A DNA stretch of 64,000 bases, taken from contig JBGAJA010000001.1 of the NCBI GenBank assembly GCA_044225175.1, positions 6,994 through 70,993 of the forward strand, in the 5' to 3' direction. The notes under the pieces are model-generated. The model had not been told where the DNA came from and ran no database searches. It saw only the letters and a program-made list of their open reading frames with translations. Position 1 is the stretch's first letter; every line of letters starts with the position of its first letter. The position numbers were made by a program, and so were the translations under genes. Shown here piece by piece: positions 19,025 to 58,421 of the stretch. The DNA comes from Candidatus Omnitrophota bacterium. GTDB taxonomy: Bacteria; Omnitrophota; Gorgyraeia; Zapsychrales; Fredricksoniimonadaceae.

Positions 19025-19056
19025 AAAGGCGTATGAGTAAATCATACGCCTTTTCC
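19025..19056 (+). terminator. Rho-independent terminator (12-bp stem aaaggcgtatga / tcatacgccttt, loop gtaaa, followed by a T-rich tail)
   Basis: A perfect inverted repeat sits 24 nt after the stop of the coiled-coil gene. Confidence 0.7.
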
Positions 19057-19087
19057 TTGTCCTTCATTCATAGAAACTCTAAAAGGA

Positions 19088-19116
19088 TTGAAAACCCCTC
19101 ATAAAATAGTTAATAT
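19088..19116 (+). promoter_or_regulatory. Sigma70-like promoter TTGAAA-17-TAATAT upstream of the yqeY-like gene
   Basis: The hexamers and spacing are read directly from the sequence. The RBS AAAGGAG lies 8 nt before ATG at 19141. Confidence 0.45.
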
Positions 19117-19140
19117 ATGTGAAATTTAAAGGAGAAAATT

Positions 19141-19593
19141 ATGTTATTAGAAGAAAAAATCTCACAAGATTATGTTACTGCAATGAAGGCGCGTGATTCT
19201 TTTCGTTCATCCGTCTTGAGCTTTTTGCGTGCCCAAGTCAAGAATATTAAAGTTGATAAACGTATCGAGGTTGTCCCTGATGAAGAGGTAATCTCGGTTC
19301 TCAAGAAGCAAATCAAACAGCGTCAGGATTCGATCTCGCAGTTTAAGGCTGGTAATCGTATTGATTTAGCAGAGAAAGAAGAGAAGGAATTAGAGGTCTT
19401 ACAAAGCTATTTACCTCAGATGGCCTCAGCCGAAGTCATTCAGTCTGCCATAGAAGAAGCTGTTAAAGAAACATCCGCAACCTCGATGAAAGATATGGGC
19501 AAGGTGATGAAAGAAGCTTTAGCTAAGTTAAATGGCAAAGCAGACAATCAACAAGTCAGCGCCTTAGTCAAAGAGCGTCTTTCCAAAATGTAA
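19141..19593 (+). CDS. yqeY: GatB/YqeY-domain protein
   Basis: A 150-aa protein with the typical YqeY N-terminus (LKEKISQDYVTAMKARD...LRAQVKN...VPDEEVISVLKKQIKQRQDSISQFKAGNR). Confidence 0.7.
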   Translation: MLLEEKISQDYVTAMKARDSFRSSVLSFLRAQVKNIKVDKRIEVVPDEEVISVLKKQIKQRQDSISQFKAGNRIDLAEKEEKELEVLQSYLPQMASAEVIQSAIEEAVKETSATSMKDMGKVMKEALAKLNGKADNQQVSALVKERLSKM

Positions 19594-19615
19594 GTTTAAT
19601 TAGAGAAAGGTTTTT

Positions 19616-29052: not shown

Positions 29053-30817
29053 ATTCTTCACTTTAAGTCTTTTCGTTTTGTTGGGTTCTTTAAATATTTC
29101 TTCTGCAGAAGATGTCAGTTTTGAAGCTACGGTGAATGCAAATCAAATTTCATTACCAGAGGCTCTAGAGCTTACATTAACGGTCCATGGAGCCAAAAAT
29201 ATTCCTCCTATTTCGATTCCCACCATCGACGGATTTCAAGTGCGTTATGTCGGCCCGTCAACCAGATTCTTAATTGTTAATGGAGTCTCTTCCAGTGAGC
29301 ATTCATTTGTTTATAATCTTTTTCCTTCTAAGACAGGTCGTTTTCAAATCCCTTCTCTATCTTTATTTATTGATCAAAAAACATATTCAACGAATCCCAT
29401 CGATATTGAAGTGATAGATACTCCAACTTCATCTGCGAGTACTGCTGATTCACCAGCAAAAGTAGGGGGAAGTATAGAGGACAAGGTTTTTTTAAAAGTA
29501 TCCATTGCTCCTAAAGAAGTTTATGTGGGAGAAAGGACTCCGCTTTCGATGAAGGTTTATGTGAAAGATTTTGGTCTTCAATTATCTTCTGCTCCTGGAG
29601 TTAAGGCAGATGGCTTTCTGACAGATTCAACTGCAAATATGCAAAAAAGCAGTGAGAACATCAATGGAATAGTTTATGAAACGCTCACATTTGATACTAA
29701 TATTTATCCAACCCAACCAGGTCCGTTAAAAATAGGACCATTTCAAGCTGTTGGACAACTTGTTTATCAGGTAAAGACAGGTAATGATATTTTTTCTGAT
29801 TTCTTTGGGAGGCAAGAAGCAAGACCTATTGCATTGCGAGCTGATCCTCTTACTATTGATGTCAAAGCCTTGCCAGAGGATGGAAAGCCTTCAGATTTTT
29901 CTGGTGCCATTGGACAATATGATTTTAAGGCAAGTGTAGGGCCCTTAGCCGTAAAATTAGGTGATCCTTTAACGCTACGAATGACAGTTTCGGGAAATGG
30001 TCGCTTTAAGAATTTAACCATGCCGGGATTGAATGATTCCCGCTTTAAAACATATGATCCTCAGATCAAAGAAGATGATAATTCTAAGACGGTTGAGCAG
30101 GTAATTATTCCAACCGATCAGAATATCAAGGAAGTGCCTCCTTTAAGTTTTAGTTACTTTGATCCTCAAGAGAAGAAATATAAAACAATCATACAAGGCC
30201 CATTTTCTATTTCTATCACAGCTCCTGCTAAAGGAGAAGAGTTTAAGGCTTATGGTTTTATGGACAAAACTGTTTCAGAAAAAACATCTAACATCAAATC
30301 TGATGGTATTAATAAATTATTTCAATTTTGTAGGGGCTTGATTAATCAAGCCCCTACGTTGGTAAAGAATTGGCGTTTCTGGTTTATCGTTATTGTCAGC
30401 ATAGTTCTTTGGGTAGGGATTAAAATTTGGCAAAGCTTCCAAAGGAGGCTGCAAAATGACCAAGCCTTTGCTAAGAAGTTTAATGCCCCTATGGAGGCTA
30501 AAAAGGGGTTCAAGCAAGCGGGTGAATTATTAACACAAAATAAAAACAAAGAGTTTTATGATGCTATTGATAAGACTCTGCGAAACTATTTAGCGCATAA
30601 AATGCATCAGCCAATTGGTAGTATGACAATCGCAGCTATGGAAGTTAAGCTGTCTCAAGCACATGTGGAAGAGAAATACATAACTGACTTAAAAGAGATT
30701 ATGGAAAGATGTGACCAAATTCGTTTTGCCGGTGTATTGCCCGATCAAAATCTTATGCAAAAAGACCTCCAGAAATTGCAGGGAATAGTGGCCTATTTGG
30801 ATAAGAAACTTAAATAA
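29033..30817 (+). CDS. batD: BatD-like protein (oxygen-tolerance family), secreted or membrane-anchored
   Basis: A signal peptide leads into a large beta-rich ectodomain, then a TM segment (FWFIVIVSIVLWVGIKIW) and a C-terminal cytoplasmic helical region. This is the canonical BatD architecture and its usual operon position. Confidence 0.7.
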   Translation: MWTRIGKFFTLSLFVLLGSLNISSAEDVSFEATVNANQISLPEALELTLTVHGAKNIPPISIPTIDGFQVRYVGPSTRFLIVNGVSSSEHSFVYNLFPSKTGRFQIPSLSLFIDQKTYSTNPIDIEVIDTPTSSASTADSPAKVGGSIEDKVFLKVSIAPKEVYVGERTPLSMKVYVKDFGLQLSSAPGVKADGFLTDSTANMQKSSENINGIVYETLTFDTNIYPTQPGPLKIGPFQAVGQLVYQVKTGNDIFSDFFGRQEARPIALRADPLTIDVKALPEDGKPSDFSGAIGQYDFKASVGPLAVKLGDPLTLRMTVSGNGRFKNLTMPGLNDSRFKTYDPQIKEDDNSKTVEQVIIPTDQNIKEVPPLSFSYFDPQEKKYKTIIQGPFSISITAPAKGEEFKAYGFMDKTVSEKTSNIKSDGINKLFQFCRGLINQAPTLVKNWRFWFIVIVSIVLWVGIKIWQSFQRRLQNDQAFAKKFNAPMEAKKGFKQAGELLTQNKNKEFYDAIDKTLRNYLAHKMHQPIGSMTIAAMEVKLSQAHVEEKYITDLKEIMERCDQIRFAGVLPDQNLMQKDLQKLQGIVAYLDKKLK

Positions 30818-30843
30818 ATAGAGCCGTTTCAAAGTAGCATTTC

Positions 30844-30859
30844 TACTATATATATAGTA
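30844..30859 (+). promoter_or_regulatory. Perfect 16-nt AT palindrome TACTATATATATAGTA 10 nt upstream of the start of the split paralog; candidate -10/operator
   Basis: Seen directly. Confidence 0.35.
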
Positions 30860-30869
30860 AACTCTCCTT

Positions 30870-32852
30870 ATGCCTAGAAATATTGATTTCAAACGAACCT
30901 TCCTCGTGGGGCTTCTCTGTGCTTTTATCTTAAACGTCCTGGGGCCATTGCCATCTAGGGCAGAGGAGTTTTATCTTCCTAAACCTGGGCAAATGGTCCA
31001 TTTAAGCCTTCTTGTGAACCCTCCTTTGCTCAAAGGAATCAAGGTCCATCCAGATAATCCTTTTATGTTCGATTTTATCCTAGATCAAGGGTCACGTTCC
31101 GTCGCTGATGCACATAAATTGAAGGAAGAGTCCAGCCGTCTAATCAAGTACTTTTTGGCCTCTTTAACCACCCCAGAAGCCGACCTATGGGTAAACCTAA
31201 GCCCCTATGAGAAAAACCGCATAGTCCCCGAAAGCTTTGGCCAAACCGAGATGGGCCGCGACCTTTTAGCCCAGGACTACATGCTCAAACAGATCACCGC
31301 CAGTCTGATGTATCCAGAAGAAGAGATTGGCCGTAAGTTTTGGAAGAGAATCTATGAAGAATCCGCCAAAAGGTATGGAACAACCAACATTCCAGTCAAC
31401 ACATTCAACAAGGTATGGATAGTCCCCGAGAAAGCCGTAGTCTATGAGAATGCAAAGGCCGGAACAGCCTATGTAGTGGAATCCAGGCTAAAGGTAATGT
31501 TGGAAGAAGACTACGTAGCCTCCAAAAAGGTGTCAGACACCTTTTTGAAGGGGCGGGTTGATAAAAAGGTGTCAGACACCTTTTTGCACAGTCAGATCAT
31601 ACGGGAGGTTGTTATTCCTGAATTGACTAAGGAGATCAATGAAGGGGCCAATTTTGTGCAGCTTAGGCAGGTTTATAGTTCTTTGATTCTAGCCACTTGG
31701 TACAAGAAGAAGATTAAAGATTCGATTTTGGCGCAGGTGTATGTCGATAAAAATAAAATCGTAGGGGTGGGTTCCAAACCCACCCAAGACCGGGCTGGTT
31801 TAGAACCAGCCCCTACGGATATTGAATTAATTTACCAACAATACCTCCAATCCTTCAAAAAAGGTGTCTATAACTACATCAAGGAAGAATCAGACCCGCT
31901 AACGAAACAACCTGTTCCCAGGAAATATTTCTCAGGAGGAGTTAATTTCTTTGGCGATTTGGCTATGAGTACTATAAACCAATTGCCTAATTCTGTGGGT
32001 CCAAAGAACCTGGCAATTGTGGGGGTACAAGTGCGTCCCGTTGATGAGCGAACGTCAGGGATTAAAAATTGGGATGATGTAGATATAGAGGGTTCCTTGC
32101 GACGTTTATTGAAAGTAGAGGAAAGGGAAGATGAAGGATTAGATCAAAAAATCAAAGAAGTGGCACTATTTATGAGTAAAGCTACTATTGGTAGATCTGC
32201 TGTTATGCGTCAAGTTTTAAATGATTTTGTGGATACGTATGGCATCAAAATGGAATTATTGCCTTCGACAACAAAGAAACAGTTATTGACAATCGTTATA
32301 AAAATAACAGGTCAACAAACGTATGAGGTATGGACAAGGTTTATTCAAGAAATAACACGGAAGTTCGGGATAGACATTCAAGAAATAGAAGAAGGACAGA
32401 AGCAGCAATTATTAACGGCTGGGCTGTATGTGGCATTAGGAAAGAAGAACAAGAAAGAAGGGGTGGTAGTATCGGATCAAGAAGAAGTATTTAATGATTT
32501 TCTAGTTTTTGTTAAGGAAACATTTGGGATTAGTGAGGAGGAACTAAGGTTAAAAGAAACAGAAGGAGGGCTTAAGTTAAGTGAGAAATTTCAAATGATC
32601 GTAGCTGGATATCATGTGTCTTTAGGCAAAGCCGAAGGATTAAATACATTTAAAGAGACAATCAAGACCATCCGAGAAACATTTGGGATTAGTGAGGAGG
32701 AACTAAGGTTAAAAGAAACAGAAGGAGGACTTAAGTTAAGTGAGAAATTCCAAATGATTGTAGCTGGATATCAGGTGTCTTTAGGCAAAGCCGAAGGATT
32801 AAATACATTTAAAGAGACAATCAAGACCATCTCGAGAAACATTTGGGATTAG
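30870..32852 (+). CDS. Giant-protein family member, N-terminal fragment. It has a signal peptide, the conserved family N-domain, and then 53-aa tandem repeats; the reading frame is lost at 32852.
   Basis: The signal peptide is MPRNIDFKRTFLVGLLCAFILNVLGPLPSRAEE. The N-domain is almost identical at protein level to the 48163 and 58422 paralogs (LIKYFLASLT.PE.DLWVNLSPYEKNRIVPESFGQTEMGRDLLAQDYMLKQITASL, PRKYFSGG). It ends with 2.5 in-frame copies of ETFGISEEELRLKETEGGLKLSEKFQMIVAGYHVSLGKAEGLNTFKETIKTIR. Confidence 0.75.
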   Translation: MPRNIDFKRTFLVGLLCAFILNVLGPLPSRAEEFYLPKPGQMVHLSLLVNPPLLKGIKVHPDNPFMFDFILDQGSRSVADAHKLKEESSRLIKYFLASLTTPEADLWVNLSPYEKNRIVPESFGQTEMGRDLLAQDYMLKQITASLMYPEEEIGRKFWKRIYEESAKRYGTTNIPVNTFNKVWIVPEKAVVYENAKAGTAYVVESRLKVMLEEDYVASKKVSDTFLKGRVDKKVSDTFLHSQIIREVVIPELTKEINEGANFVQLRQVYSSLILATWYKKKIKDSILAQVYVDKNKIVGVGSKPTQDRAGLEPAPTDIELIYQQYLQSFKKGVYNYIKEESDPLTKQPVPRKYFSGGVNFFGDLAMSTINQLPNSVGPKNLAIVGVQVRPVDERTSGIKNWDDVDIEGSLRRLLKVEEREDEGLDQKIKEVALFMSKATIGRSAVMRQVLNDFVDTYGIKMELLPSTTKKQLLTIVIKITGQQTYEVWTRFIQEITRKFGIDIQEIEEGQKQQLLTAGLYVALGKKNKKEGVVVSDQEEVFNDFLVFVKETFGISEEELRLKETEGGLKLSEKFQMIVAGYHVSLGKAEGLNTFKETIKTIRETFGISEEELRLKETEGGLKLSEKFQMIVAGYQVSLGKAEGLNTFKETIKTISRNIWD

Positions 32853-34260
32853 TGAGGAGGAACTAAGGTTAAAAAAGAAACAGAAGGAGGACTTAAGAGC
32901 AGTGAGAAATTCCAAATGATTGTAGCTGGATATCATGTGTCTTTAAGCAAAAGCGAAGGAGGAATACATTTAAAGAGACAATCAAGTGAGAAACATTTCC
33001 AAATGAGGAGGAATCGTTAAAAGAAACAGAAGGAGGACTTAAGTTAAGTGAGAAATTCCAAATGATCGTTGTAGCTAGATATGCGGTGTCTTTAGGCAAA
33101 GCTGAAGGATTAAATAAGGATTGAGAAACATTTGGGATTAGTGAGGAGGAATTAAGGTTAAAGAAACAGAAGGAGACTTAAGTTAAGTGAGAAATCCAAA
33201 ATGAGTAGCTGGATATCAGGTGTCTTTAGGCAAAGCCGAAGGATTAAATACATTTTCAAGTGAGGAGGAACTAAGGTTAAAAGAAACAGAAGGAGGACTT
33301 AAGTTAAGTGAGAAATTCCAGATCGGAGCTGGATACTAAGGTTAAAAGCTACAAGGACTTAAGAAATTCCGAAGGATTAATTCCCGAAACAAAGAGACAA
33401 TCAAGATAATTCGAGAAACATTTGGGATTAGTCTAAGGTTAAAAGAAACAGAAGGAGGACTTAAGTTAAGTGAGAAATTCCAAATGATCGTAGCTGGATA
33501 TCCGGTGAGTTTAGGCAAAGCCGAAGGATTAAATACATTTAAAGAGACAATCAAGATAATTCGAGAAACATTTGGGATTAGTGAGGAGGAACTAAGGTTA
33601 AAAGAAACAGAAGGAAACATTTGGGATTAGTGAGGAAGGATTAAATACATTTAAAAAGAGACAATCAAGATATAATTCGAGAAACATTTGGGATTAGGTG
33701 AGGAGGATTAAGGTTAAAAGAAAAGAGGACTTAAGTTATGGAGAAATTCCAAATGATCGTAGCTGGATATCAGTGTGTCTTTAAGGAAAGCCGAAGGATT
33801 AAATACATTTAAAGAGACAATCAAGATAATTCGAGAAACATTTGGGATTAGTGAGGAGGAACTAAGGTTAAAAGAAACAGAAGGAGGACTTAAGTTAAGT
33901 GAGAAATTCCAAATGATCGTAGCTGGATATAGTGTAGCTACAAGGAAAGCCGAAGGATTAAATACATTTAAAGAGACAATCAAGATAATCCGAGAAACAT
34001 TTGGGATAGTGAGGAATACAGGTTAAAAAGAAACAGAAGGAGGATTAAGTTAAGTGAGAAATTCCAAATGATTGAGCTGGATATCATGTGTCTTTAGGCA
34101 TTTGAAGGATTAAATACATTTTAGTCCGAGAAACATTTGGGATTAGTGAGGAGGAATTAAGGTTAAAAGAAACAGAAGGAGGACTTAAGTTAAGTGAGAA
34201 ATTCCAAATGATTGTAGCTGGATATCAGGTGTCTTTAGGCAAAGCCGAAGGATTAAATAT
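32517..34260 (+). repeat. Array of about 11 tandem 159-bp (53-aa) coding repeats. The first ~2.5 copies are in frame; the rest, 32853..34207, are heavily degraded by indels and rearrangements.
   Basis: The unit gaaacatttgggattagtgaggaggaactaaggttaaaagaaacagaaggagg...atcaagaccatccga recurs with period 159. Later copies carry deletions, scrambling and a variant (aagataattcga in place of aagaccatccga). Both flanks belong to one family gene. Confidence 0.85.
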
Positions 34261-35584
34261 ATTTAGGAGTAATTTGCAGGGGCAGGCACAAAAAATAGGG
34301 CCGAGACCTCAACAGCCGCTTGTGATACAAGGTTGGTTAAGCGCTATAGTTCAAGGGGTCAATAATAGTTATATCAAACGATATAGTTTTTCAATTCTTT
34401 CTATAGATCAAGCGATGAGAGTAACTACATCCCCTCTTCTAGAACGATTTGCAGCGCGCGCAATTGAAGAAGCTGATTTAACAGATGAGCATGTCGTTGA
34501 TGTGGTAGGAGGGAGATTTAACGAAGGATATGAATTCCCCAATGGTTTTCGACCAGGAAGAGTTTCGTTAGGTATGGGCCATGGATTGTCTACTGATCGA
34601 ATGATAGAAAGATGGCATGGTGCGGGAAGAGATAAGGTTGTATTTGAACGTCGAAATAGGCTCGGAAGAGTTAAGTCTCAAGTTCTTTGGGTAAAAATGA
34701 AATCGGCAGAGGAAGAAATTGCAGAATGGGAGAATAAAGGAGACCTTGATTTAGCAAGATTTTGGCTTGGTGAAATTAGGAGGCACGTCGTTAAAGATTC
34801 AAATGAAGGTTTTCAGTTAGCTACTGGCAGATTTGGAGAAAATCTTGAATTTTATGATGGTTTTAAACCTGGTCGTGTTGCAATGGGAGTGGGGCATATT
34901 TTAGATGGAGAAACACTAGCGCTGGAATGGCATGGTACAGGAAAAGATAAGATTATTTTTGAACGTCTAGATGCTGATGGAAAAGTGATTGCAAAAGTAT
35001 TATGGGTTAAGTTAAAGACGAAAAAAGGAGAACCTCCGCAATGGGAAAATAAGGGAGACTTTGAGTTGGCAAGGTTTTGGTTAGGTGAAATTAATCGCAT
35101 AGAGATAACCTCAACAATCGCTACAGAATTATATCAGGGAAGGTTTAATGCGGGATTTAGATTTGATGGGAATGGATATTTGGCTGGACAGGAGTATATG
35201 GGAATTGGTCATGGAGAGCCAGGGGACAGGATTTTTATGGATTGGATAGGAACGAGAAGAAATAGAGTGCAAATTAGTAGGGAACGTCGTTCTGAGGTTA
35301 TTATAACAGCAGAATGGTTTACGATCAGACAGCACAATGCGAAAGATTTGGATGAGTGGAACAGAGATCAAGCTCAAATATCTGAAACAGCAATATTTAC
35401 AAAAGGTGGTATTGATTTGACAGCCGATAAAACACCCTTGCAGATCCAAAATATTGAGGAGGGTATTCATTTTAAATTCGACCCTGCGATGATACAGAAA
35501 TTCCAAAATGCCCGTGGTTTTTACCCCGTGATTGTGAACATTATCCCACTGCAGGATGTAAGAGAATTTTTAGGTGCTTTGTAA
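34208..35584 (+). CDS. Giant-protein family member, C-terminal fragment. It opens with the tail end of the 53-aa repeat, then has three ~100-aa internal repeats and the conserved family C-terminal tail.
   Basis: It begins MIVAGYQVSLGKAEGLN, which is the repeat unit. The three internal repeats are GRFNEGYEFPNGFRPGRVSLGMGHG...VLWVKMK...WENKGDLDLARFWLGEI. The tail GGIDLTADK...GFYPVIVNIIPL lies at 35405..35581. Confidence 0.7.
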   Translation: MIVAGYQVSLGKAEGLNIFRSNLQGQAQKIGPRPQQPLVIQGWLSAIVQGVNNSYIKRYSFSILSIDQAMRVTTSPLLERFAARAIEEADLTDEHVVDVVGGRFNEGYEFPNGFRPGRVSLGMGHGLSTDRMIERWHGAGRDKVVFERRNRLGRVKSQVLWVKMKSAEEEIAEWENKGDLDLARFWLGEIRRHVVKDSNEGFQLATGRFGENLEFYDGFKPGRVAMGVGHILDGETLALEWHGTGKDKIIFERLDADGKVIAKVLWVKLKTKKGEPPQWENKGDFELARFWLGEINRIEITSTIATELYQGRFNAGFRFDGNGYLAGQEYMGIGHGEPGDRIFMDWIGTRRNRVQISRERRSEVIITAEWFTIRQHNAKDLDEWNRDQAQISETAIFTKGGIDLTADKTPLQIQNIEEGIHFKFDPAMIQKFQNARGFYPVIVNIIPLQDVREFLGAL

Positions 35585-36727
35585 TTCTTGTAAGACGATT
35601 TGCGCTGCGCGAAGAGAAGCTCCGGGTTCTCCCAAAGCGGTTTTGACCTTTCGTAGTTCTTCCACGATTTCTTTATTCTTTAGAATATCTTCCACATGAG
35701 TTGCAATATTTTCTGGATTACAGTCATTTTGAATAAGTTCAGGGACAATTTTTTTTCCAGCTACCACATTGACAAGGCCAATGTAGGGGATTTTAATGAC
35801 GTTTTTGGCAATGGCATAGGTAATCCAGGATGTTTTATAAATAATGACCATGGGTTTGCCTAGCAGTCCTGTTTCAAGTGTTGCAGTTCCTGAGGCGACA
35901 ATTGCGGCATCTATAGCATTGATCGCAGCATAAGGGTTTCCTTCAAATATTTTTAAAGGTAATGATGGGGGAATAAGGTTTTCTAAGGAACTTCTTTCAA
36001 TGGTGGATGCTTTTAATAGAAGGAATTGATAATTATTGTTCTTGGAATAAAGTTTTTGAGCTGCTTCAAGCATGGCTGGCAAATGCCTGTCTACTTCTTT
36101 GTGACGAGACCCAGGAAGAAGTCCGATTGTAATGCGTTCTTGGGAGGAGAGTCCAATGGATTGAAGGATATCTACAGGAGATTGCCAGCCAGAGGCTGGT
36201 CCGCCTTTGGCGGAAATTTCATCCACTAAGGGATGGCCGACATAATCGACGTTCATGCCAAACTTGGCATAGAGTTCTTTTTCGAAAGGAAAAAACACCA
36301 ACATACGATCAACAATTTTTTTAATTGTATGAATCCGTCCCTGACGCCAAGCCCAGACTTGAGGGCTAACGTAGTAGATCACCTTGATATGGCGTTTTTT
36401 AAGTTCACTGGCTAATCTTAGATTAAAGCCCGGATAATCAACCAGAACAACAGCATTAGGTTTGATGCGGTCAATTTCTGCAAGAGTATGCTCAAAGACT
36501 TTCTTAATGCGTCCAAGATTCTTAATAACTTCAGAAATACCAATAACTGCAAGAGACGTAATGTGCTCGAATAGCTCTACTCCCGCTTTCTGCATGCAAT
36601 CTCCGCCAACTCCAGAAAATTGAATATCGCTGGACAGGGACTTAAGGGCATTCACTAGTTCAGCTGCGCGCATATCGCCGGAGGCTTCGCCCGCTACTAT
36701 GATAATGTGCTTTTTTTGTGTTCCCAT
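35570..36727 (-). CDS. lpxB: Lipid-A-disaccharide synthase
   Basis: The N-terminus HIIIVAGEASGDMRAAELV is the LpxB signature and the GT-B fold length is 385 aa. The 3' end overlaps the convergent family gene by 15 nt. Confidence 0.9.
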   Translation of the reverse strand: MGTQKKHIIIVAGEASGDMRAAELVNALKSLSSDIQFSGVGGDCMQKAGVELFEHITSLAVIGISEVIKNLGRIKKVFEHTLAEIDRIKPNAVVLVDYPGFNLRLASELKKRHIKVIYYVSPQVWAWRQGRIHTIKKIVDRMLVFFPFEKELYAKFGMNVDYVGHPLVDEISAKGGPASGWQSPVDILQSIGLSSQERITIGLLPGSRHKEVDRHLPAMLEAAQKLYSKNNNYQFLLLKASTIERSSLENLIPPSLPLKIFEGNPYAAINAIDAAIVASGTATLETGLLGKPMVIIYKTSWITYAIAKNVIKIPYIGLVNVVAGKKIVPELIQNDCNPENIATHVEDILKNKEIVEELRKVKTALGEPGASLRAAQIVLQELQST

Positions 36728-37635
36728 ATTTTGTGTGTGATTTCTAAGGCGACTTTAAGAGCTTCTTTGCCCTCAACGCCAGAAACGAGGGGTCTTTGAT
36801 CGTCTCGAATACAATCGAGGAAGTGTTCTAGTTCTTTTTTAAGAGGTTCTTCTTTTTCAATAGGGAGACTTTTTCGGTGAATACCTTTTTCATCCTTTGA
36901 ATAGATAAAGGCTTCTTGTTTGGCGTAGTCTAAAGAGATGTATGCGTTTTTGATAAACATACGAATTTTTCGTGTGACTTCTGGAGAAATACGGCTAGCG
37001 GTGATATTGCAAACGCAGCCGTTGTTAAAGGTGATACGGGCGTTCGCGATATCTTCTTTATCTGTCATGACATTGATTCCAACCGCTTGAATGTCTTTCA
37101 CGCTCGACTGAACCATTCCTAAAATGATATCAATGTCATGGATCATCAAGTCCATGACAACGCCAATGTCCAAAGAGCGATTGGGAAAAAGGTTAAGTCT
37201 ATGGCATTCCACAAATAAAGGATTGGCAGCCAGGGGAGCAACCGCTTGAAAAGCGCTGTTAAAACGTTCCACATGTCCTACTTGAATTTTGAGTTTATTC
37301 TTCTGGGCTGTATCAATTAGGATTTGTGCTTCATCTAAGGTATACGTGATTGGTTTTTCAATAAAGGTGTGGATGTTATGATCTAAAAAGAATTTGGCGA
37401 TTTCAAAATGACTGACGGTTGGTGTGCAAATGCTGACGGCATCAACTTTTCCAACTAAATTACGGTAATCTGTTTCCATGGGAATGTGGTATTGGCGTGA
37501 GAGGGGTTTAAGATGTTCGACGTGGTGGTCACAGATTGCGACCATGTTGACTTTATTTTTAAGGGCATGAAACGTCTTTAAATGACGAGTTCCTAAGAAG
37601 CCACAACCGATGAGTGCTAAATTTATTCTTTGCAT
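36697..37635 (-). CDS. Gfo/Idh/MocA-family NAD(P)-dependent oxidoreductase, translationally coupled upstream of lpxB; candidate GnnA-like UDP-GlcNAc 3-dehydrogenase
   Basis: The Rossmann N-terminus INLALIGCGFLGTRH is followed by EKP (FIEKP), both characteristic of Gfo/Idh/MocA. I preferred the ATG (MQRIN) over the TTG at 37671. The 3' end overlaps the lpxB start by 31 nt. Confidence 0.7.
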   Translation of the reverse strand: MQRINLALIGCGFLGTRHLKTFHALKNKVNMVAICDHHVEHLKPLSRQYHIPMETDYRNLVGKVDAVSICTPTVSHFEIAKFFLDHNIHTFIEKPITYTLDEAQILIDTAQKNKLKIQVGHVERFNSAFQAVAPLAANPLFVECHRLNLFPNRSLDIGVVMDLMIHDIDIILGMVQSSVKDIQAVGINVMTDKEDIANARITFNNGCVCNITASRISPEVTRKIRMFIKNAYISLDYAKQEAFIYSKDEKGIHRKSLPIEKEEPLKKELEHFLDCIRDDQRPLVSGVEGKEALKVALEITHKIWEHKKSTLS

Positions 37636-37695
37636 GAAAAGGATAGTAACAAAGCCCTCGACAAAAGTCAAACCCCATAGTATTATCTGCGCTTA

Positions 37696-39492
37696 ATGAT
37701 TAATAATTATATAAAACTTCTTCAATTTCTCAAAACTCACCTTAAACGTTTCTTTACTGCAGTTTTTTTTATTCTTTTATCGTCGGTGTTTGAAGGTGTT
37801 CAGCTCACCTTAATGCTTCCAGTCATTGATCGTATTTTTACAAATAAAAAGATTGTATTACCCAATAAAGTCCCAGAATTTCTCAACAATCTGGTGGGTT
37901 ATTTGAATAGCATCGACAATCATGTGCTTTTTTGGAGTGTGCCGCTGTGCTTTTTAGCTCTTTTTACAATCAAACAAGTGGTATCGTACTTTGCAGATTA
38001 TTACATGAATGATGTGGCCCAACGAGTCATGAGGGATGTGCGTTCTAGACTTTTTGAACGAATACAAACCCTGTCGTTAGACTATTTTAGTAAGAAAAGA
38101 ACGGGTGAACTGGTTGCTCGTATCACGAATGACGTTGGAGTTATTGAAAACGCTGTGTCTTATGCACTGACAGATTTATTTCGACAACCCCTTTTGATTA
38201 TTATCTTCTTATCCCTGGCGTTCACATTTAATGTGCAGGGAACATTATTGATTTTTGTGATGGTTCCATTTATTGCGATTCCTATGACAATCATTGGTAA
38301 GAAGCTGCGTAAGCTTTCCAAGGGCCAGCAAGAAAAAATGGCTGATATTAATTCTCATCTTCTTGAGACCATCTCTGGCGTTCGTATTCTCAAAGCTTTT
38401 GGGACAGAAAGATACGAGATCCAGCGATTTAACCAACAAAATCAAGATTATTACAAGCTTCGAATGAAAGGTTTGAAGAATTTGATGTTGCTGGGGCCTA
38501 TTACTGAAATGGCAGGAGCTGTCTGCGGGATTGCGGCCGTTTTAATTCTAGGCCGCGCTGTATTAAATGGAGAATTGTCATTCGGTGTTTTTTCTTTGTC
38601 TCTTGCTTCTATTTTGCAAGTCATTCGTCCCATCAAACGATTAGCTAATGTGCAAGCTATCATTCAGCAAGCATTGGTGGCTAATGAGCGTATTTACGAT
38701 GTGTTAGAAACAAAGCCTACGGTTGTCGAGAAAACAGGTGCTTCAGAATTGGAGCCAATGAAAGATAGAATTCTTTTGGAGAATGTCAGTTTTAGTTATG
38801 ACAAAGTAGGTGATGCGGTATTGCAGGATATCAATTTGACTATTAAAAAAGGTGAACTTGTGGCTATCGTCGGTCCTACGGGAAGTGGGAAGTCGACATT
38901 GGTCAATTTGATTCCTCGTTTTTATGATACAAGTAGTGGTAAAGTAAGTTTTGATGGAGTTAATGTCAAAGATGTGTCTTTTAAATCTTTAAGAGGACAA
39001 GTAGGTATTGTGACTCAGGAATCTATTTTATTTAATGATTCGGTTAGAAATAACATTGCATATGGAACATTTGATGCTCCTATGGAACAAGTCAAACAAG
39101 CCGCAACAATGGCTTTTGCCGACCATTTCATTGAAAAAATGCCGATGGGTTATGAAACGATGGTTGGAGATCGAGGTTTCAGGTTGTCAGGGGGAGAAAA
39201 GCAGCGTTTAACAATTGCGCGAGCTATTTTAAGAAATCCGCCAATATTGATTCTGGATGAAGCAACTTCTTCTTTGGATTCAGAATCAGAGAAATTTGTT
39301 CAAGATGCCCTAGATTCTTTGATGAAAGGCCGAACGGTTATTGCAATTGCTCACAGGCTTTCAACCATCATGAGAGCAGATAAAATTGTAGTTTTAGAAG
39401 CCGGCCGAATCGTTGGTTTTGGAAAACATGATGACCTGCTGTTTACGTGCCCATTATACCGACGTCTTTATGAAACACAATTTCAGGTCTAA
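37696..39492 (+). CDS. msbA: ABC transporter, fused permease/ATPase (MsbA-like lipid A/lipid exporter)
   Basis: A 6-TM N-terminal half is followed by an NBD with Walker A GPTGSGKST, the ABC signature LSGGEKQRLTIARA and Walker B ILILDEATS. It is divergent from the lpxB operon. Confidence 0.8.
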   Translation: MINNYIKLLQFLKTHLKRFFTAVFFILLSSVFEGVQLTLMLPVIDRIFTNKKIVLPNKVPEFLNNLVGYLNSIDNHVLFWSVPLCFLALFTIKQVVSYFADYYMNDVAQRVMRDVRSRLFERIQTLSLDYFSKKRTGELVARITNDVGVIENAVSYALTDLFRQPLLIIIFLSLAFTFNVQGTLLIFVMVPFIAIPMTIIGKKLRKLSKGQQEKMADINSHLLETISGVRILKAFGTERYEIQRFNQQNQDYYKLRMKGLKNLMLLGPITEMAGAVCGIAAVLILGRAVLNGELSFGVFSLSLASILQVIRPIKRLANVQAIIQQALVANERIYDVLETKPTVVEKTGASELEPMKDRILLENVSFSYDKVGDAVLQDINLTIKKGELVAIVGPTGSGKSTLVNLIPRFYDTSSGKVSFDGVNVKDVSFKSLRGQVGIVTQESILFNDSVRNNIAYGTFDAPMEQVKQAATMAFADHFIEKMPMGYETMVGDRGFRLSGGEKQRLTIARAILRNPPILILDEATSSLDSESEKFVQDALDSLMKGRTVIAIAHRLSTIMRADKIVVLEAGRIVGFGKHDDLLFTCPLYRRLYETQFQV

Positions 39493-39510
39493 GACGATGC
39501 TTTTTCGCCT

Positions 39511-39539
39511 TGACACCATAAGTCCTTGTTGATACTATA
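39511..39539 (+). promoter_or_regulatory. Strong sigma70-like promoter TTGACA-17-TACTAT upstream of the HU-like gene
   Basis: The hexamers and 17-nt spacing are seen directly. The RBS TAGGAGG lies 9 nt before ATG at 39581. Confidence 0.55.
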
Positions 39540-39580
39540 GTTACGATTTTTCCGTTAGAAATTTTTAGGAGGCTATTGTT

Positions 39581-39853
39581 ATGACGAAAAAAGATATTGT
39601 ATTAAAAATCACCGATTCTACTGGTATTAAACAAGTTGACGTAAAAAAGATTGTACAAAAGGCCTTTGATGTCATTGTTGATGCTCTGATGAAAGGTGAT
39701 AAGGTTGAACTGAGAAATTTCGGTGTTTTTAAAATCAAAGAACGCCGTGCCCGTTTTGGTCGCAACCCTCGCACAGGAGAGAGTGTCCCTGTCCCGCCTC
39801 GCAAAGTGGTTGTATTTAAATCTGGTTTAGAAATGAAACACAAAGTTAAATAA
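39581..39853 (+). CDS. HU/IHF-family DNA-binding protein
   Basis: A 90-aa protein with the HU fold signature: an N-terminal helix pair, then RNFGVFKIKERRARFGRNPRTGESVPVPPRKVVVFKSG, which forms the beta-arm. Confidence 0.85.
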   Translation: MTKKDIVLKITDSTGIKQVDVKKIVQKAFDVIVDALMKGDKVELRNFGVFKIKERRARFGRNPRTGESVPVPPRKVVVFKSGLEMKHKVK

Positions 39854-39868
39854 GGTTGGTCTCGTTTA

Positions 39869-41155
39869 GTGATAAAGAAACTTTCAGTTCCCCGCGGAAC
39901 AACAGATATTCTTCCTGATCAAATTCCTTTATGGGAACAGCTCGAATCTAAAGGCCGTAAGATTCTTAAGTCCTATGGTTACAAGGAGATTCGTACTCCT
40001 ATCTATGAAGACACCTCTCTATTTAAACGTTCTTTAGGTCAAACAAGTGATGTTGTTAATAAACAATTATTAGAATTAGCTTCAAGTAAGTCTAGCCAGG
40101 CGGCTAGTGAAGATGAAGGGTATTCGCTTCGACCTGAAGGCACCGCTTCGGTTGTCCGGTCTTATATTGAAAATTCTTTTGAAGCAAAAGAAAGTCTATC
40201 CAAGCTTTTTTACTATGGTCCCATGTTTCGAGGAGAACGTCCACAAAAGGGAAGACTTCGACAGTTTCATCAAATTGGTGCTGAAGCCATAGGTCCAAAT
40301 TCCACCTCCCCATATTTAGATGTTGAAGTGATTGCGCTTGCGATTGAATTGCTTAGAAGTTTTGGCGTGCAAAATTATCGTTTAAAAATTAATAGTTTAG
40401 GTTCAAAAGAAGATAAGGCCAATGTTTCTGCTTGGTTAAAAAAAGAATTTTCTTTGAGAGTCAATGAGCTGTGTGAGGATTGCCAAAGCCGCTATGAACG
40501 CAATGTTTTTCGGGTATTGGATTGCAAGAATGAGTCTTGCCGCAAGATTGTTTCATCCTTGGTCAAAAATTTACCATTATCTGCGGAAAGTACAGTCTAT
40601 TTTCAAAAAGTACAAGATGCATTAAAGGCGATTGATATTAAATTTGAAATTGCGCCCCACCTGGTCCGCGGGCTTGATTATTACGTGCACACTGTGTTTG
40701 AAATTACCGCTGAAGGTTTAGGAAGCCAAGATGCTGTTGGAGCAGGCGGACGTTACAGTGGGTTGGTTCATGAATTAGGTGGAAATGAGAAGGTTGATTA
40801 TGGGGCGATTGGATTTGCGTTGGGAATAGAAAGGATTTTATTGGCAATGGATGGTAGAGACGCAAAATCTTGCGTCTCTACATTAGATGCATACGTCATT
40901 GCTATGGATCCAATCAATTTGGATGCTGCGTTCGAATTAACCCAATTCATCCGACAGTCGGGTCTTTCCGCGGATATGAATTATCTTTCTGGTTCCATTA
41001 AATCGCAGATGAATAAAGCTAATAAATCCAATGCACGTTTTGCTCTCATTTTGGGTGAAGAAGAAATCAAAAATAAAACTGTATCCATGAAAAACATGCA
41101 GACAGGCGCTCAGGAACAGGTTCCCTGGGAGCAGGTTATAGAAAGGTTAAAGTAA
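39869..41155 (+). CDS. hisS: Histidyl-tRNA synthetase
   Basis: Class II motifs are present (FRGERPQKGRLRQFHQIGAEAIG, GGRYSGL, and the GFALGIERILLAM motif 3), along with the C-terminal anticodon-binding domain. Confidence 0.9.
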   Translation: MIKKLSVPRGTTDILPDQIPLWEQLESKGRKILKSYGYKEIRTPIYEDTSLFKRSLGQTSDVVNKQLLELASSKSSQAASEDEGYSLRPEGTASVVRSYIENSFEAKESLSKLFYYGPMFRGERPQKGRLRQFHQIGAEAIGPNSTSPYLDVEVIALAIELLRSFGVQNYRLKINSLGSKEDKANVSAWLKKEFSLRVNELCEDCQSRYERNVFRVLDCKNESCRKIVSSLVKNLPLSAESTVYFQKVQDALKAIDIKFEIAPHLVRGLDYYVHTVFEITAEGLGSQDAVGAGGRYSGLVHELGGNEKVDYGAIGFALGIERILLAMDGRDAKSCVSTLDAYVIAMDPINLDAAFELTQFIRQSGLSADMNYLSGSIKSQMNKANKSNARFALILGEEEIKNKTVSMKNMQTGAQEQVPWEQVIERLK

Positions 41156-48162: not shown

Positions 48163-51100
48163 ATGAAAACCCCATTAACTATATTTATTTTAGTGAGTTT
48201 TATTGTTACAGGAACTATAGGCCCTATACCTGTTTCTGCAGAGGTAGGGGCGTATAGCAATACGCCTTTACATTTGCCAAAGCCTGGGGTAATGGTCCAT
48301 TTGAGCCCACCAGCTAATCCAGCAATGCTCAAAGGGATCAAGGTTCATCCAGATAATCCGTTTCGGTTTGAATTCATAATGGATGCGGGTGATCCTGTAG
48401 GGGCACGGCATGCCGTGCCCCTACGTGATGATGCCAGCAGATTAATCAAATATTTCCTCGCCTCATTAACTATACCCGAGCATGACCTCTGGGTGAACCT
48501 AAGTCCCTATGAAAAGAACCGTATAGTTCCTGAGAGCTTTGGCCAGACCGAGATGGGCCGAGATCTATTAGCCCAAGACTACATGCTCAAACAGATCACC
48601 GCGAGTCTTATATATCCTGAAGATGAGATAGGAAAGAGATTCTGGAAGAGAATCTATGAAGAAGCAGCCAAGAAATATGGAACAACGAATATACCTGTGA
48701 GTACATTCAATAAGGTATGGATAGTTCCTGACAAAGCTGGGATTTATAAAACAAATGATACAGCTTTTGTTGTTCAAAGCCATCTTAAGGTCATGGTTGA
48801 AGAAGATTATGTATCGGCCAATAAGGATAATGCAGCAGGAGTAAAAGCAGATGGTAGCCCGAAAACTAATGCCATAGGATCTCAAATTATACGTGAAATT
48901 ATCATTCCTGAATTGACCAAAGAAGTTAATGAAAACCAGAATTTTGCAAATTTACGCCAAATTTATAATTCTCTGATCCTTGCGACATGGTTTAAGAAAC
49001 ATTTGAAGAACAGCGTTTTAAATAAAATTTATGTAAACAAGAACAAGGTCTTTGGGGTGAATGTCGAAAATAGAAATGCAAAGGAAGAGATTTTTGCCCA
49101 GTATTTAACGGCATTCAAAAAGGGAGTTTACAATTATATTAAAGAGGAGCCGGACGTTATAACACAGCAAAAGGTTCCGAGAAAATATTTTTCTGGTGGA
49201 GCTCAATTTGGACAGGTTCCTAATATTCTCACACAAGACCACCTTATTTCTGAGGTTCGCTGCAGTCAGGCCATGCTTGTTTCAGTGAATTTGCAAGCTA
49301 GGAACGATCCTGCAATGCCAACAAGCAAAGAATCATCTAAGATGGGCAAACCTTTGGAAAGCATAGAAATTCCTCATATTTTTTTGAAGCCAAACTCCCG
49401 AATACCTTTGCAAATAGCTAATATTCGACAGGGAGTTTTTTTAGATGATGTGGCTAAAGAGGAATTAACTTTGCAGGATGTATCTTTACTGCAAAGAAAA
49501 ATAGTGCGTCTTAATAATGCTCAAGATGGTCAAGTGATTAGAGATTTTCTTAGGGCTGAAGAAAATCGGGATTATGCATCTGGAAAAGAACCCAGAATGA
49601 TTATTAAACGTATTAAAGATCAGACGTATATTCTTCCATATTCCTCTTACCATAAAGGAGCTTCGCCAGTTCTACTTAAAGTTCTCTCGCAAATGAATAT
49701 TCCTTCCAACGCTCAAGGGCCAGTTTTTTTTACGGATGTGTCTTATATTATAAACCAGAACGATCATCAGAAGATAGATTCGCTTACAGGCCATTTTGCG
49801 GGGACACAAATCTATCTTTTAAAAGCTGATTTTCTTTCTCTGATTGATTCCATGAGTCCAGAATCTAAGTTAAGGGAAATTATTCTTCAGCTTGTTTTAG
49901 AAGAATTATTTGGACAAACATCTCAGAGATCTAAAACTGTTAATTTGGAGGATCAATGGGGAAGGTTTAAAAATTTACTTGATGAGAATAAATTAGATCC
50001 TATCAATTCGATTTGTTTCTTAACTGAAAGGCACTTTATTGCCCCAGAGTTTTTTTTACACGAGTTAGAACAATGGAACATCCAAACAGTAACTTTAGAT
50101 CAAAGAGATGCGATTAATACGATTCTTCGATTTATTATCAATAATGATCCCAATGTTGAGAATTTAACGAGAGCAACAAAATTCTTATACAAAATGGATT
50201 CTCAAGCTGTAATTTCTTTAGCGAATTTGGAGACTACGTCTTTGGCTTTGGAACAAGATAGTCTTAATCAAATGAGTGCAGACGAAAAGATTAAATTTAT
50301 CTTAGTATTAACTCAATTGACTCAAGGAGAACATAGGCTTCATTTATTAATGAAAGCTTACAAAATATTTAAAGAAGCCAGAAATCTTGAGCAGTGGAGC
50401 AGAAAACAACGCTTGAAAGATATCAGTCTTGGATTTGCTCAAATAGGCGCTTATCAACAGGCCATTGAAGTCACGCTTAATGAAAAAGATCAGGATTTCG
50501 AAGTATTGTTTAATATAGCGGAAATTCAATGGAAAGCAGGTGATTGGGAAGGCGCGAATAGAACATTTGAAAAAGCTTTAACAATAGTTCAAGCTTCAGA
50601 CAGAATGCAGGATAGATACATTAATTTAATTTTAAGAATGACTAAAATACAGGGAGTTTCTCATCCTCAAGAGGCCAAAAGAACATTACAGCAACTAACA
50701 AATACACCATTCAATACTTTAATGCAAGTGGCTGTTGTTTTTGCCCGGCTAGGGTTTGAATATGATGCCAAAAATATGTTTCTTAAACTTCGAAGAAATG
50801 CATTGAGTTCAAAAGAAGGTTTAACAAGGCAAGCAGATGCGCTTAAGAAAATAGCCAAGCAGCAAATGGAAATTGGCTATAGTCCTCAAGCTACCCTGGA
50901 AGAATTAAGAAGAATTATTCGTCAAAAGGAAATTGGTTCAGGTTTGAATTGGAGGGTCTTCACTCTTATTGAGATTGTTAAGACAGAAATTAAAGAAGGT
51001 TTTGATTATGAACAAGACTTAAAATTAGCGCAACATTTGGCCGGATTTATAGACAAAGTTGATAGCTTTGAAATAATGAAATCCTTTGCTCAAATTGAAA

Positions 51101-54100
51101 TCATGATAGGAAAAGACGCTAGAAGCTATCTTCAAAAAGCCCAGGAAAGCTTTCGTGATGTTGAGGATTATCAGAAAAGAAAACCTCTAAATGAAATTAT
51201 TAAAATCCAGTTAGATGGTGGTTATTTGACCGAAGCTATAGAAACAATGGGGCTCATTAGAGGTGGGGTGGAGGGAGACTTGTATTCTCGTCTTATCATT
51301 CTTCTTGCAGAATCTGGACAGTATGAAGAGGCATTACAGCGCACCGGTGGCGAAACATTTGAAAAGATTATTAGTATTTATAAAAATAAACCTGGAAATC
51401 GTGCTGAAAAAGCCAGGATTAAAAGATTGTTGAACAATCTCAAAGAACTACGTGAAGAGAAGGAGACAAAAGAGAAAATAAGATATTGGAGCAAAATTGC
51501 AATGTGTCAAATAGACTTAGGGTTTAAGAAAGACGCTCAAGAGACTATCTCACAAGTTAAAGTTCTCATTGGGAAATTAGAAACACATGACAATATTGAT
51601 CGACCGGGTTATTGGCTATGGATGGCAGAACTGGAAATGAAAGCAGGAATCAAGGTTGATTTGAAAATTTTAACGAAAGAAGTGCTTTCTCTTACAAATA
51701 AGAAATATTATGAGAATTTTTCCTCAAAAACAGATGCATTATTGAGTTTAGCGAGAATTCTTCAAAAGAATAAGATGGATTCTACTGAGATTCTTAGAGA
51801 ATTTATTAACATCTGTGAAGAAGAGAGAAGTGACTCGGAAAATGAAGGGTATTATGAAGTTATTGATGCGTTAATTGAGTTGGGTCAATTTCAACGTGAA
51901 TTTGATTATGATGCGTCTAAAACGTACAGAACTGCCTATGGGCTCATTGATGGATCCTATTATGAAGATACCTCAAATGAAAGTAATTATTCTGAAGACA
52001 AAAATACTGACTTTAATAATGTAATGAAAGCCCAAATTAAAGCCGGTTATTTTAAAGATGCACTCACAACGATTGAGAGTCTTGAATATAACGATAAGAT
52101 TGCTGGTTATTTGAACATGTATAACACAGCTAAAAAATCTAATAAGCTTGATATCCAAAATCATGCCTTTAATCAACTATCCATTCAAGGTCAAAATTTT
52201 TCCTTTGGCGATATAACAGATGCCTCAACCGCAATTTTTTCACTTCCACGCATTCGATTTCTTGTTAAAGCTTATTTAGATGGGCAGATTAAGCTTGATC
52301 TTAAGAGTGTTCTCAATTTAATGAGAATTCTTGAAAGCGATTTGTTTTCTTTCGAAGATGGTATTATGGAACGGCGAGCTACTTTATTGCAGTTGACAGA
52401 GAGGGCTCTAAAGGAGAGGTATGGGAATATTCCTGAAATTGAAAATATTTTACGACGATTTTTTTCTAAGATAGAGCGCGACCAGGAAAGGTTTTCTAAA
52501 TCAGCTAATGACCCTAAAGCCCTTGAAGAATTAGGCAGGGAGCTAAGAAATCGGAATTTATCGTTGATTAATACTGTCAATTTAATTGAGCTCTACCACA
52601 TGTATTATCCGAAAATGTCTTACTTCTTGATTTGGCTTTTGACACAAGATGTGCATGTAAGACCCGTTGCAAATCTAAGATACGTTATTATGCAAGCATC
52701 CAGCCAAAAAGTATCTTATAAGCCGCTTCTTTTGTATCTATTACAAGCCCCTTATATTAGCCAGCGAGAGGAACGAGAGAAAGATTATACGAAACGCTGG
52801 CAGCTTTTGAAGAAATATAAAACATTGATGTCTCTTATTTCTCGTCTTGAGATAGAGCAATCTGTTGTCAGTGATATTATGAAGGATTTCTCAAGTGATT
52901 TTGATTTTACACGAACAGAGGAGTTTTTTAAAATAGGCATAAAGAAAGTTTTAGAGCAATATTTAGAAAAACCCCTAGATGACCTTCAAGAAATTAAGAA
53001 TGTGGATGAATTAGTGAATATATTAATTTATATGAAAAATATGTCTGGCGAAGATGATGATGGAGAGGATGAGGAGGGTAATCAAGGTGTATTAAAAGAA
53101 ATTATACATAAATATTTGACTTCTGGTTCAAAGGCGGCCTGGGATTATATAAAAACATTAGGAGGCAATGAAGATTATAAAGATGAAAAGAACTTTCTGG
53201 AAGGTCCAGGGGCCATGAAATTTGTTGTTAAGGAAGTAGAAGATGTAGAACAATTTATTCGTAGTAGAAAACAAATGCTTTATGAAGATATTAAGCGTCA
53301 TATGGAGTGGTTAAAGAATGATTACAGTAAAGATAAGAAGGTTGTAGATGCCATTGAGAAATTATCGATTCAATTCGGTGAGAATGTTGATGAGGATATT
53401 TTGAAAATCAAAACAATCCTTGCGGAGCTCAAAGCTAAAGAGCTGGGAAAGGGGGGTATTCAAAAGAGCAACAGCCATGCGAAAGACATGGAAGAGCGTA
53501 TTTTTAATATTCAGAATTTAAAAGCGCAAACTTTAAGGAATGTCACTGATGAAATCACAATTGATATTAGCCAAGATCCTATTGAAACTTTGCATTTAGG
53601 AGTTGGTTTTCCAAGTTGTTTAGACTGTATAGATGGAGAATACAAAGTCCATGCCTTTGAAAATCTTGTGGATTTAAATAAACGAGTGATTTATGTGAAA
53701 GATAGCCAAGGCAGACGCATTGGTCGTGTAGTTCTTGCTCTTGCAAAAGAAGGGGAAAAGAAAATTATTTTACCGATATCTATATTCTATACAAATACGA
53801 CGTTCGATTTAAATGGCCACATGTTGAGCTTTTTAAAAGCATACAGCCGCCATACGGGATATAATTTATTAATAACGAATAATATTATTTCTGGCTTACA
53901 AGGCCCTAAGCAGGAAGCGAACATTAAATTAGAAGAAGCGGTTGCAAGAACTATTTATTCTGATTTTGGTTTTGAAGTAGGAGAAGGAAGAATAAATGAG
54001 AGTGTCTGGCGTTATACCCCAGATGGGGCGATGAGTGTAGCTCAAAAACAAGAAGTTGGTGGTATTGATTTAAATCCTACAGCCATAACTATGCTTGAAA

Positions 54101-58385: not shown

Positions 58386-58421
58386 TTGACCAAAGCGATC
58401 AAATACACTTTGGAGAATATT

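Follow-up and report, generated by a model that had tools for sequence, protein, structure and literature searches.

A split repeat-protein gene of Candidatus Omnitrophota and its very probable origin as a consensus artefact in a 159-bp tandem array

Introduction

When one gene appears as two open reading frames (ORFs) in a deposited genome, has the gene decayed, is it switched, or has its sequence been miswritten? The question is raised by a locus on the forward strand of a 64,000-nucleotide stretch of Candidatus Omnitrophota contig JBGAJA010000001.1 (hereafter the window), in which two parts of an exported repeat protein, encoded by ORFs 30870..32852 and 34208..35584, are separated by a damaged array of 159-bp tandem repeats. 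An initial annotation, made from the sequence alone, attributed the break either to decay or hypervariability of the array or to assembly or consensus errors in it. The split is very probably a sequencing and assembly consensus artefact within the tandem repeat, the gene itself being intact, a reading based on the anatomy of the array, the spectrum of its errors, its clean margins, the single frame of an independently assembled contig, and k-mers that contradict the deposited sequence.

The split would then be a matter of data hygiene rather than of biology. The two fragments are already public as separate proteins, and pseudogene counts, pangenomes, and gene-decay arguments that use this Omnitrophota genome would inherit the error. 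The real gene would be that of a recently expanded repeat protein of ~1,600 amino acids (aa), belonging to a very large, uncurated, exported Omnitrophota family defined by a conserved N-terminal domain (N-domain) and C-terminal tail, and this family is the more interesting lead than the split of the ORF.

Two reading frames around one tandem array

The upstream ORF (30870..32852, forward strand) encodes 660 aa (P0001) and the downstream ORF (34208..35584, forward strand) 458 aa (P0122), and the public gene calls on the 819,945-bp NCBI contig list these two halves as separate proteins. As deposited, the ORFs lie in different frames, and stop codons occur in all frames across 32853..34105. The initial description of two ORFs flanking a decayed 159-bp array is borne out by the ORF coordinates, by Tandem Repeats Finder (TRF), and by alignment to a cyclic consensus of the unit. 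The gene is laid out as follows.

30870..35584, forward strand: whole coding sequence (CDS), ~1,616 codons if the 12 units are intact (first estimated at ~1570 codons), split as deposited into 660 aa (P0001) and 458 aa (P0122)
30870..30962, forward strand: predicted Sec-type signal peptide, aa 1-31, with a basic n-region, a hydrophobic core, and an SRA/EE cleavage motif, recognized by inspection of the translation
30885..32054, forward strand: conserved family N-domain, aa 6-395 (hidden Markov model (HMM) built from homologues, E = 2e-202)
32157..32516, forward strand: pre-array module, homologous to P0007/P0121 residues ~400-560, its 3' part consisting of older, degenerate copies of the 53-aa unit
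32517..34262, forward strand: tandem array, 12 units of 159 bp (53 codons), from TRF and alignment to the cyclic consensus
32517..32831, forward strand: left clean margin, units 1 and 2, in frame, 315 bp, with substitutions that are unit variants only
32832..34129, forward strand: lesion zone, with 56 insertions and deletions (indels) and 26 unshared substitutions
34130..34262, forward strand: right clean margin, unit 12, sharing the C-half's frame, 133 bp, with array exit at unit position ~131
34433..35362, forward strand: three divergent ~105-aa repeats with the motif ..RFW..GRFN.G..F..G..PG...G.GHG....W.G.....ERR....W.K..
35399..35581, forward strand: conserved family C-terminal tail of ~60 aa, GGIDLT...IxF..DPAM...QNA.GF.PVI.NI.P....FLG (tail HMM, E = 1.2e-29)

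The N-half has no tail and the C-half no N-domain. The three ~100-aa repeats (34433..35362, ~105 aa each) and the conserved tail (35399..35578) of the initial annotation are present, and the ~105-aa repeat recurs in five copies in P0002 and three in P0003. The 53-aa unit is present once in the module of P0007/P0121, and homologues have A-Q-A at the position of the cleavage motif of the signal peptide. The gene is therefore a mosaic assembled from modules of the family, with ~12-fold amplification of a single 53-aa unit.

The array, found by TRF with a period of 159 and scores of 830-908, is the sole tandem array in the window. Units 1, 2, and 12 are clean in the alignment to the cyclic consensus and units 7 and 10 nearly so; units 3-6, 8, 9, and 11 contain many small insertions and deletions and a few mosaic stretches, with partial-unit deletions and mosaic segments in units 4-6, 8, and 11, and a heavily deleted thirteenth unit may be present near 33340-33400. 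The damage initially ascribed to the array thus does lie in units 3-11, with the correction that units 7 and 10 are nearly clean. The upstream ORF was thought to hold 2.5 perfect repeats; it holds two full units, which differ from each other by 5 nt and 1 aa (H/Q), and is then disrupted by a single inserted T at 32832, which shifts the frame onto the TAG codon at 32850-32852 that ends the ORF. The 31-mer CAAGACCATCTCGAGAAACATTTGGGATTAG spans this +1 T and represents a lesion-specific junction. The return of the frame, placed at 34208 by the initial annotation, occurs earlier: the downstream frame is open from 34106, and the correct repeat frame is regained from 34130, where unit 12 starts, with the last lesion (34122-34124) lying just before it.

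Not all differences among the units are damage. Of the 53 substitutions relative to the consensus, 27 fall at 10 recurrent positions, such as T84, T99, T28, and the ACC-ATC versus ATA-ATT or ATA-ATC codons that give KTIR versus KIIR, and the KIIR variant reported initially is one of these recurrent, position-specific differences. These 27 substitutions are genuine unit variants and are ordered along the array, with units of the ACC-ATC type at the 5' end, those with ATA-ATT in the middle, and those with ATA-ATC near the 3' end, and with T84 and T99 in subsets of units. When the indels are removed, the units are nearly identical in DNA, and the array is therefore young.

Lesion spectrum and confinement

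All lesions lie inside 32832..34122 (1,291 bp), where there are 19 insertions and 37 deletions of 1-26 nt, 44 of the 56 with lengths that are not multiples of 3. The 26 unshared substitutions comprise 11 transitions and 15 transversions. Indels outnumber unshared substitutions by ~2:1 without transition bias, which is the opposite of the outcome of neutral decay. The flanks of the array are perfect, and the other ~3.4 kb of the gene contains no frame-breaking lesion, where ~116 would be expected at the rate of the array. The neighbouring genes are all full length, with AcrB, BacA, PhoH, PBP2, and tRNA synthetases aligned end to end with their Pfam profiles (AcrB at profile positions 2-1020 of 1021), and the initial view that the damage is confined to the array is upheld.

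The clean margins, 315 bp long on the left side and 133 bp on the right, extend about as far as anchored short reads would, and anchoring on the left side is aided by the private variants of unit 1. In the Trycycler benchmark of Wick et al. 2021 (PMC8442456), residual long-read errors comprised 44% insertions, 47% deletions, and 9% substitutions; hybrid-polished assemblies retained errors in repeats while their non-repeat sequence was error-free, and hybrid assemblies of the short-read-first kind contained clustered errors (PMC8442456). The locus shares with these errors an indel-dominated spectrum, spurious frameshifts, and split gene calls. It differs from them (PMC8442456) in having ~82 events in 1.3 kb, including 9-26-nt deletions and mosaic pieces, and this difference from ordinary residual errors suggests raw-read gap filling or mis-registered reads. 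With a spectrum dominated by indels, lesions confined to positions beyond the reach of anchored reads, and a contradiction by read-derived sequence described below, the split belongs with the residual consensus errors already known from repeats. Such artefacts have a practical signature: clean margins about one read long around a repeat interior rich in indels.

Independent k-mer assembly of run SRR28480385

Exact look-up of neighbouring proteins retrieved contigs from the Logan assembly of SRR28480385, an accession for which the literature searched gave no hit. Looking up neighbouring genes in an independent k-mer assembly and comparing 31-mers constitutes a cheap test for artefacts of this kind. 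BatD, encoded upstream of the split gene, served as the anchor for contig L001, and a guessed partial product of lpxB, on its other side, as the anchor for contig L007; exact look-ups in the contig index with both half-proteins, the full-length lpxB product, and the family member P0004 returned no entry. L001 is 100% identical to window 19033..31042, and a third contig, L006, is 100% identical to window 36186..40879. The k = 31 assembly breaks at 31042, 30 nt into a stretch of ~240 aa that is near-identical to P0004, and a second time at a palindrome in lpxB.

L007 (2,749 bp) consists of window 31853..32516, exactly one consensus unit of the 159-bp type, and the post-array sequence to 36214. 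It carries a single uninterrupted partial ORF of 705 codons, which crosses from N-half to C-half and has its stop codon in common with the window; therefore, both halves share one reading frame whenever the array is made of whole units. The proposal that the two ORFs are halves of one family gene is confirmed by this contig and by the homologues, in which N-domain and tail occur in one polypeptide in 119 of 120 cases in the first search and in 184 of 209 overall.

The unit in L007 carries C28, A54, C75, C84, and G99, a pattern unobtainable by a single crossover between window unit 1, which has G54, T75, and T99, and window unit 12, which has T28 and T84. Logan contigs are k = 31 unitigs simplified by bubble popping, and L007 is best read as a de Bruijn collapse along the majority path of the interior units rather than as a real allele. 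A run of 15 consecutive 31-mers of L007 (unit positions 70-114, where C84 and G99 occur together; AAATTCCAAATGATCGTAGCTGGATATCAGGTGTCTTTAGGCAAA) is absent from the whole window, in which each of the C84-type units (4-10) has a lesion exactly within positions 70-114. The reads therefore hold clean interior-unit sequence that is absent from the deposited assembly, and these missing clean 31-mers are the strongest single result.

Origin of the split

Long-range (long-read) data must lie behind the source contig because the locus is broken or collapsed when the same strain is assembled from short k-mers. The route through sequencing and assembly, like the exact copy number, is inferred. Short reads would not be uniquely placeable inside the 1.7-kb array, and an error-prone, possibly mis-registered consensus from long reads or gap filling would have been left uncorrected in its interior, while the sequence outside the array would have been fully corrected, together with the margins that a read or read pair anchored in unique sequence can roughly reach. 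The density of lesions and the mosaic pieces could reflect very low long-read depth, the filling of a gap with raw reads, or reads aligned in different repeat registers, and true copy-number heterogeneity in the population could aggravate the mis-registration.

Some of the evidence weighs against an artefact. At ~6% events per base, with multi-base deletions and mosaic segments, the array is more damaged than is usual for a polished consensus, and for such a density the long-read depth must have been very low, a gap must have been filled with raw reads, or reads must have been mis-registered. The in-frame array is supported indirectly, through a collapsed k-mer contig, which shows the frame and the dominant unit but not the cleanness of all 12 units. 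No orthologous locus was found in GTDB representative genomes, where a scan with BatD returned only relatives at <=33% identity, or among JGI metagenome contigs, where scans with an exact 29-mer of the unit and with the repeat-module protein returned no relative; a protein search with the repeat and the C-half without its tail matched only the window's own two products. The uninterrupted in-frame array that the initial annotation proposed to look for in reads is seen only indirectly, in the single frame of the collapsed contig L007. Between the two origins offered initially, decay or hypervariability on the one hand and assembly or consensus error on the other, the indel spectrum, the confinement of the lesions, and the missing 31-mers favour the second.

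Polymorphism and error need not exclude each other. It is possible, although doubtful, that the array varies in copy number within the population and that the long-read consensus failed on it; every cell would then have an intact gene, the small indels would still be artefacts, and the reading would in part complement that of a consensus artefact. The partial-unit deletions and mosaics do resemble a consensus over reads in different registers, variation in the number of in-frame units is known in the family (P0041 versus P0045, described below), and L007 provides a one-unit path; however, the unit of L007 is not a simple recombinant of units 1 and 12, the collapse of an assembly graph describes it better than a short allele does, and mis-registration can arise without true polymorphism. 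That the genome truly has the one unit of L007, with an open frame, and that the 12-unit array was over-expanded by the assembler is extremely unlikely: artefactual duplication would not create ordered variants shared among units, the unit of L007 mixes variants absent from both edge units, which requires interior units in the reads, and the collapse of tandem repeats is expected of a de Bruijn graph.

The remaining alternatives accept the lesions, or some of them, as real. The deposited sequence, with its stops in all frames across 32853..34105, and the two proteins of the public gene calls would suit a pseudogene in which the array has decayed by mutation and the two ORFs are non-functional remnants or separately expressed fragments, and Omnitrophota are a phylum thought to be host-dependent, whose genomes can carry pseudogenes. 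Such decay is nevertheless improbable, since it would have struck the remaining 3.4 kb of this gene as well. Lesions are not spread over the CDS (0 in ~3.4 kb versus 44 in 1.3 kb), and substitutions do not dominate over indels; units that are near-identical apart from indels leave little time for decay, the clean read-derived 31-mers missing from the window contradict it, and the C-half would have no signal peptide and the N-half no tail. Very improbable, too, is a case in which the lesions are real products of repeat-focused mutation, or of extreme hypervariability within the population, in the interior of a young array, leaving a secreted N-fragment and a separately translated C-fragment. 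A phase-variable or programmed-frameshift locus, at which full-length expression is switched through the repeat tract, is barely conceivable. Repeat tracts in exported or surface proteins are classic contingency loci, and the tract here likewise lies within the CDS of a member of a multi-copy exported family; however, simple-sequence contingency loci use units of 1-7 nt, whose slippage shifts the frame, and the phase variation suggested initially is ruled out as a product of slippage because the 159-nt unit (53 codons) is divisible by 3, so that the gain or loss of units keeps the frame. The 44 separate frame-breaking indels would be unable to act as a switch, and no short homopolymer or 1-7-nt tract occurs at the ORF boundaries.

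The N-domain/tail protein family

If the split is a consensus artefact, the protein behind it is a complete member of a family with several representatives in the window. Four members are scattered among housekeeping genes at 1..7617, 30870..35584, 48163..54258, and 58386..62597, all on the forward strand. The N-domain is common to the ORFs at 48163..54258 and 58386..62597, and the tail to these two and to the ORF ending at 7617, the N-terminus of which is not contained in the window. The cargo between the conserved termini comprises WD40, TPR, AAA_5 with transglutaminase and VWA, and repeats in the members of the window.

The N-domain matches >4,578 clusters at 90% identity, the few with a source name being mostly labelled Candidatus Omnitrophica, and 8,059 representative clusters at 50% identity. 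It is always N-terminal (residues ~1-400) in proteins of 0.5-3.4 kaa, and thousands of proteins match it at 60-86% identity. In the 185 tail-bearing proteins collected, 184 of which are the homologues with an N-domain, a median of 4 residues separates the end of the tail from the C-terminus. Between the two, the middle is swapped and includes kinase/HATPase, methyltransferase, GGDEF, HAD, GNAT, DnaJ, WD40, TPR, and other domains. The split gene conforms to this N-domain-cargo-tail plan, with an N-terminal domain of ~390 aa behind a signal peptide and a tail of ~60 aa at the extreme C-terminus. No description of the family was found in the literature searched.

Neither the N-domain nor the tail-bearing C-half matched Pfam-A or NCBIfam (E <= 0.01), and neither had a PDB sequence match better than E = 0.25. 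For the N-domain, the AlphaFold model had a mean predicted local distance difference test (pLDDT) score of 57 and was too poor for a fold search, and the AlphaFold2 model of the C-half (mean pLDDT 66) gave no Foldseek match against the PDB at E <= 0.001. In the latter model, the ~105-aa repeats are predicted as beta-meanders with local pLDDT up to ~90, and the tail (pLDDT ~70-78) is predicted to be mostly helix and coil.

In-frame variation in unit number is found elsewhere in the family. Two homologues found in JGI and ENA metagenomes, P0041 and P0045, are near-identical except that P0041 has one extra in-frame unit of 56 aa, a natural instance of copy-number variation of tandem units. The streptococcal alpha C and Rib proteins and enterococcal Esp are exported or surface proteins with long, near-identical, in-frame tandem repeats that vary in copy number. 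The split gene resembles them in its predicted N-terminal signal peptide, in a unit of tens of codons that is divisible by 3 in length and near-identical in DNA, and in variation of unit number within the protein family, here between P0041 and P0045 and not at this locus. It differs in having no sequence or fold relationship to them, and no cell-wall anchor motif was identified in it.

Substrates of the type IX secretion system (T9SS), with a Sec signal and a C-terminal domain (CTD), and polymorphic toxins are modular exported families with conserved termini and swapped cargo. The Sec signal, conserved N-domain, hypervariable middle, and conserved 60-aa C-terminus of the present family are similar by analogy only; in contrast to those families, the N-domain and C-half have no Pfam or NCBIfam match and the C-half model no PDB fold match, and no secretion-system genes were seen in the window. 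A T9SS cargo with a CTD was considered and rejected on the absence of a CTD-family match (Pfam/NCBIfam, E <= 0.01), a tail model that is mostly helix and coil rather than the beta-sandwich of a CTD, and the lack of a PDB match. A role as an exported modular adhesin or effector is no more than guessed at from the architecture, although it would be reasonable in a phylum considered host-dependent.

Two further observations concern individual members. The window at ~31012..31740 (N-domain aa ~49-291) differs from P0004, a protein of 1,887 aa encoded on another NCBI contig, at 1 position in ~240 aa, and the parts flanking this shared stretch diverge between the two proteins, which suggests recent gene conversion or recombination between paralogues. 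P0007, which has the single-copy module, and P0002, which has the ~100-aa repeats, were considered as positional orthologues of the split gene and rejected, as neither is flanked by BatD or lpxB. In the JGI metagenome contig L008, an IS66-family pair, TnpB_IS66 and DDE_Tnp_IS66, lies at 3779..5748 immediately upstream of P0007.

Neighbouring genes and small inserts

The split gene lies between the following two genes.

29033..30817, forward strand: BatD, upstream neighbour and last gene of an intact MoxR/DUF58/BatA/BatB/TPR/BatD operon
35570..36727, reverse strand: putative lpxB (named by eye), convergent neighbour of the repeat gene

The operon, a canonical one at 23821..30817, directly precedes the split gene. 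In another family member (256..7617), the tail is joined to a MoxR-like AAA_5 ATPase, a transglutaminase core, and a VWA domain, and the same functional theme is thus present in the window once as an operon and once as a fusion. On the other side, the repeat-protein gene and the convergent lpxB share 15 nt at their 3' ends (35570..35584).

Within lpxB (reverse strand), a palindrome, CCAGCCAGAGGCTGG, at 36185..36199 encodes part of the peptide SAKGGPASGWQ, and it is exactly at this palindrome that L006 and L007 break and overlap. The same 11 residues, SAKGGPASGWQ, also interrupt the conserved tail of P0006, an unrelated family protein, and similar hairpin-like in-frame inserts are VIPAKAGI (P0010), VIARSEATKQS (P0003 and P0113), and LVGRVREGG (P0010). 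From their sequences, inserts of the SAKGGPASGWQ type look like a small repeat element that inserts in frame into CDSs.

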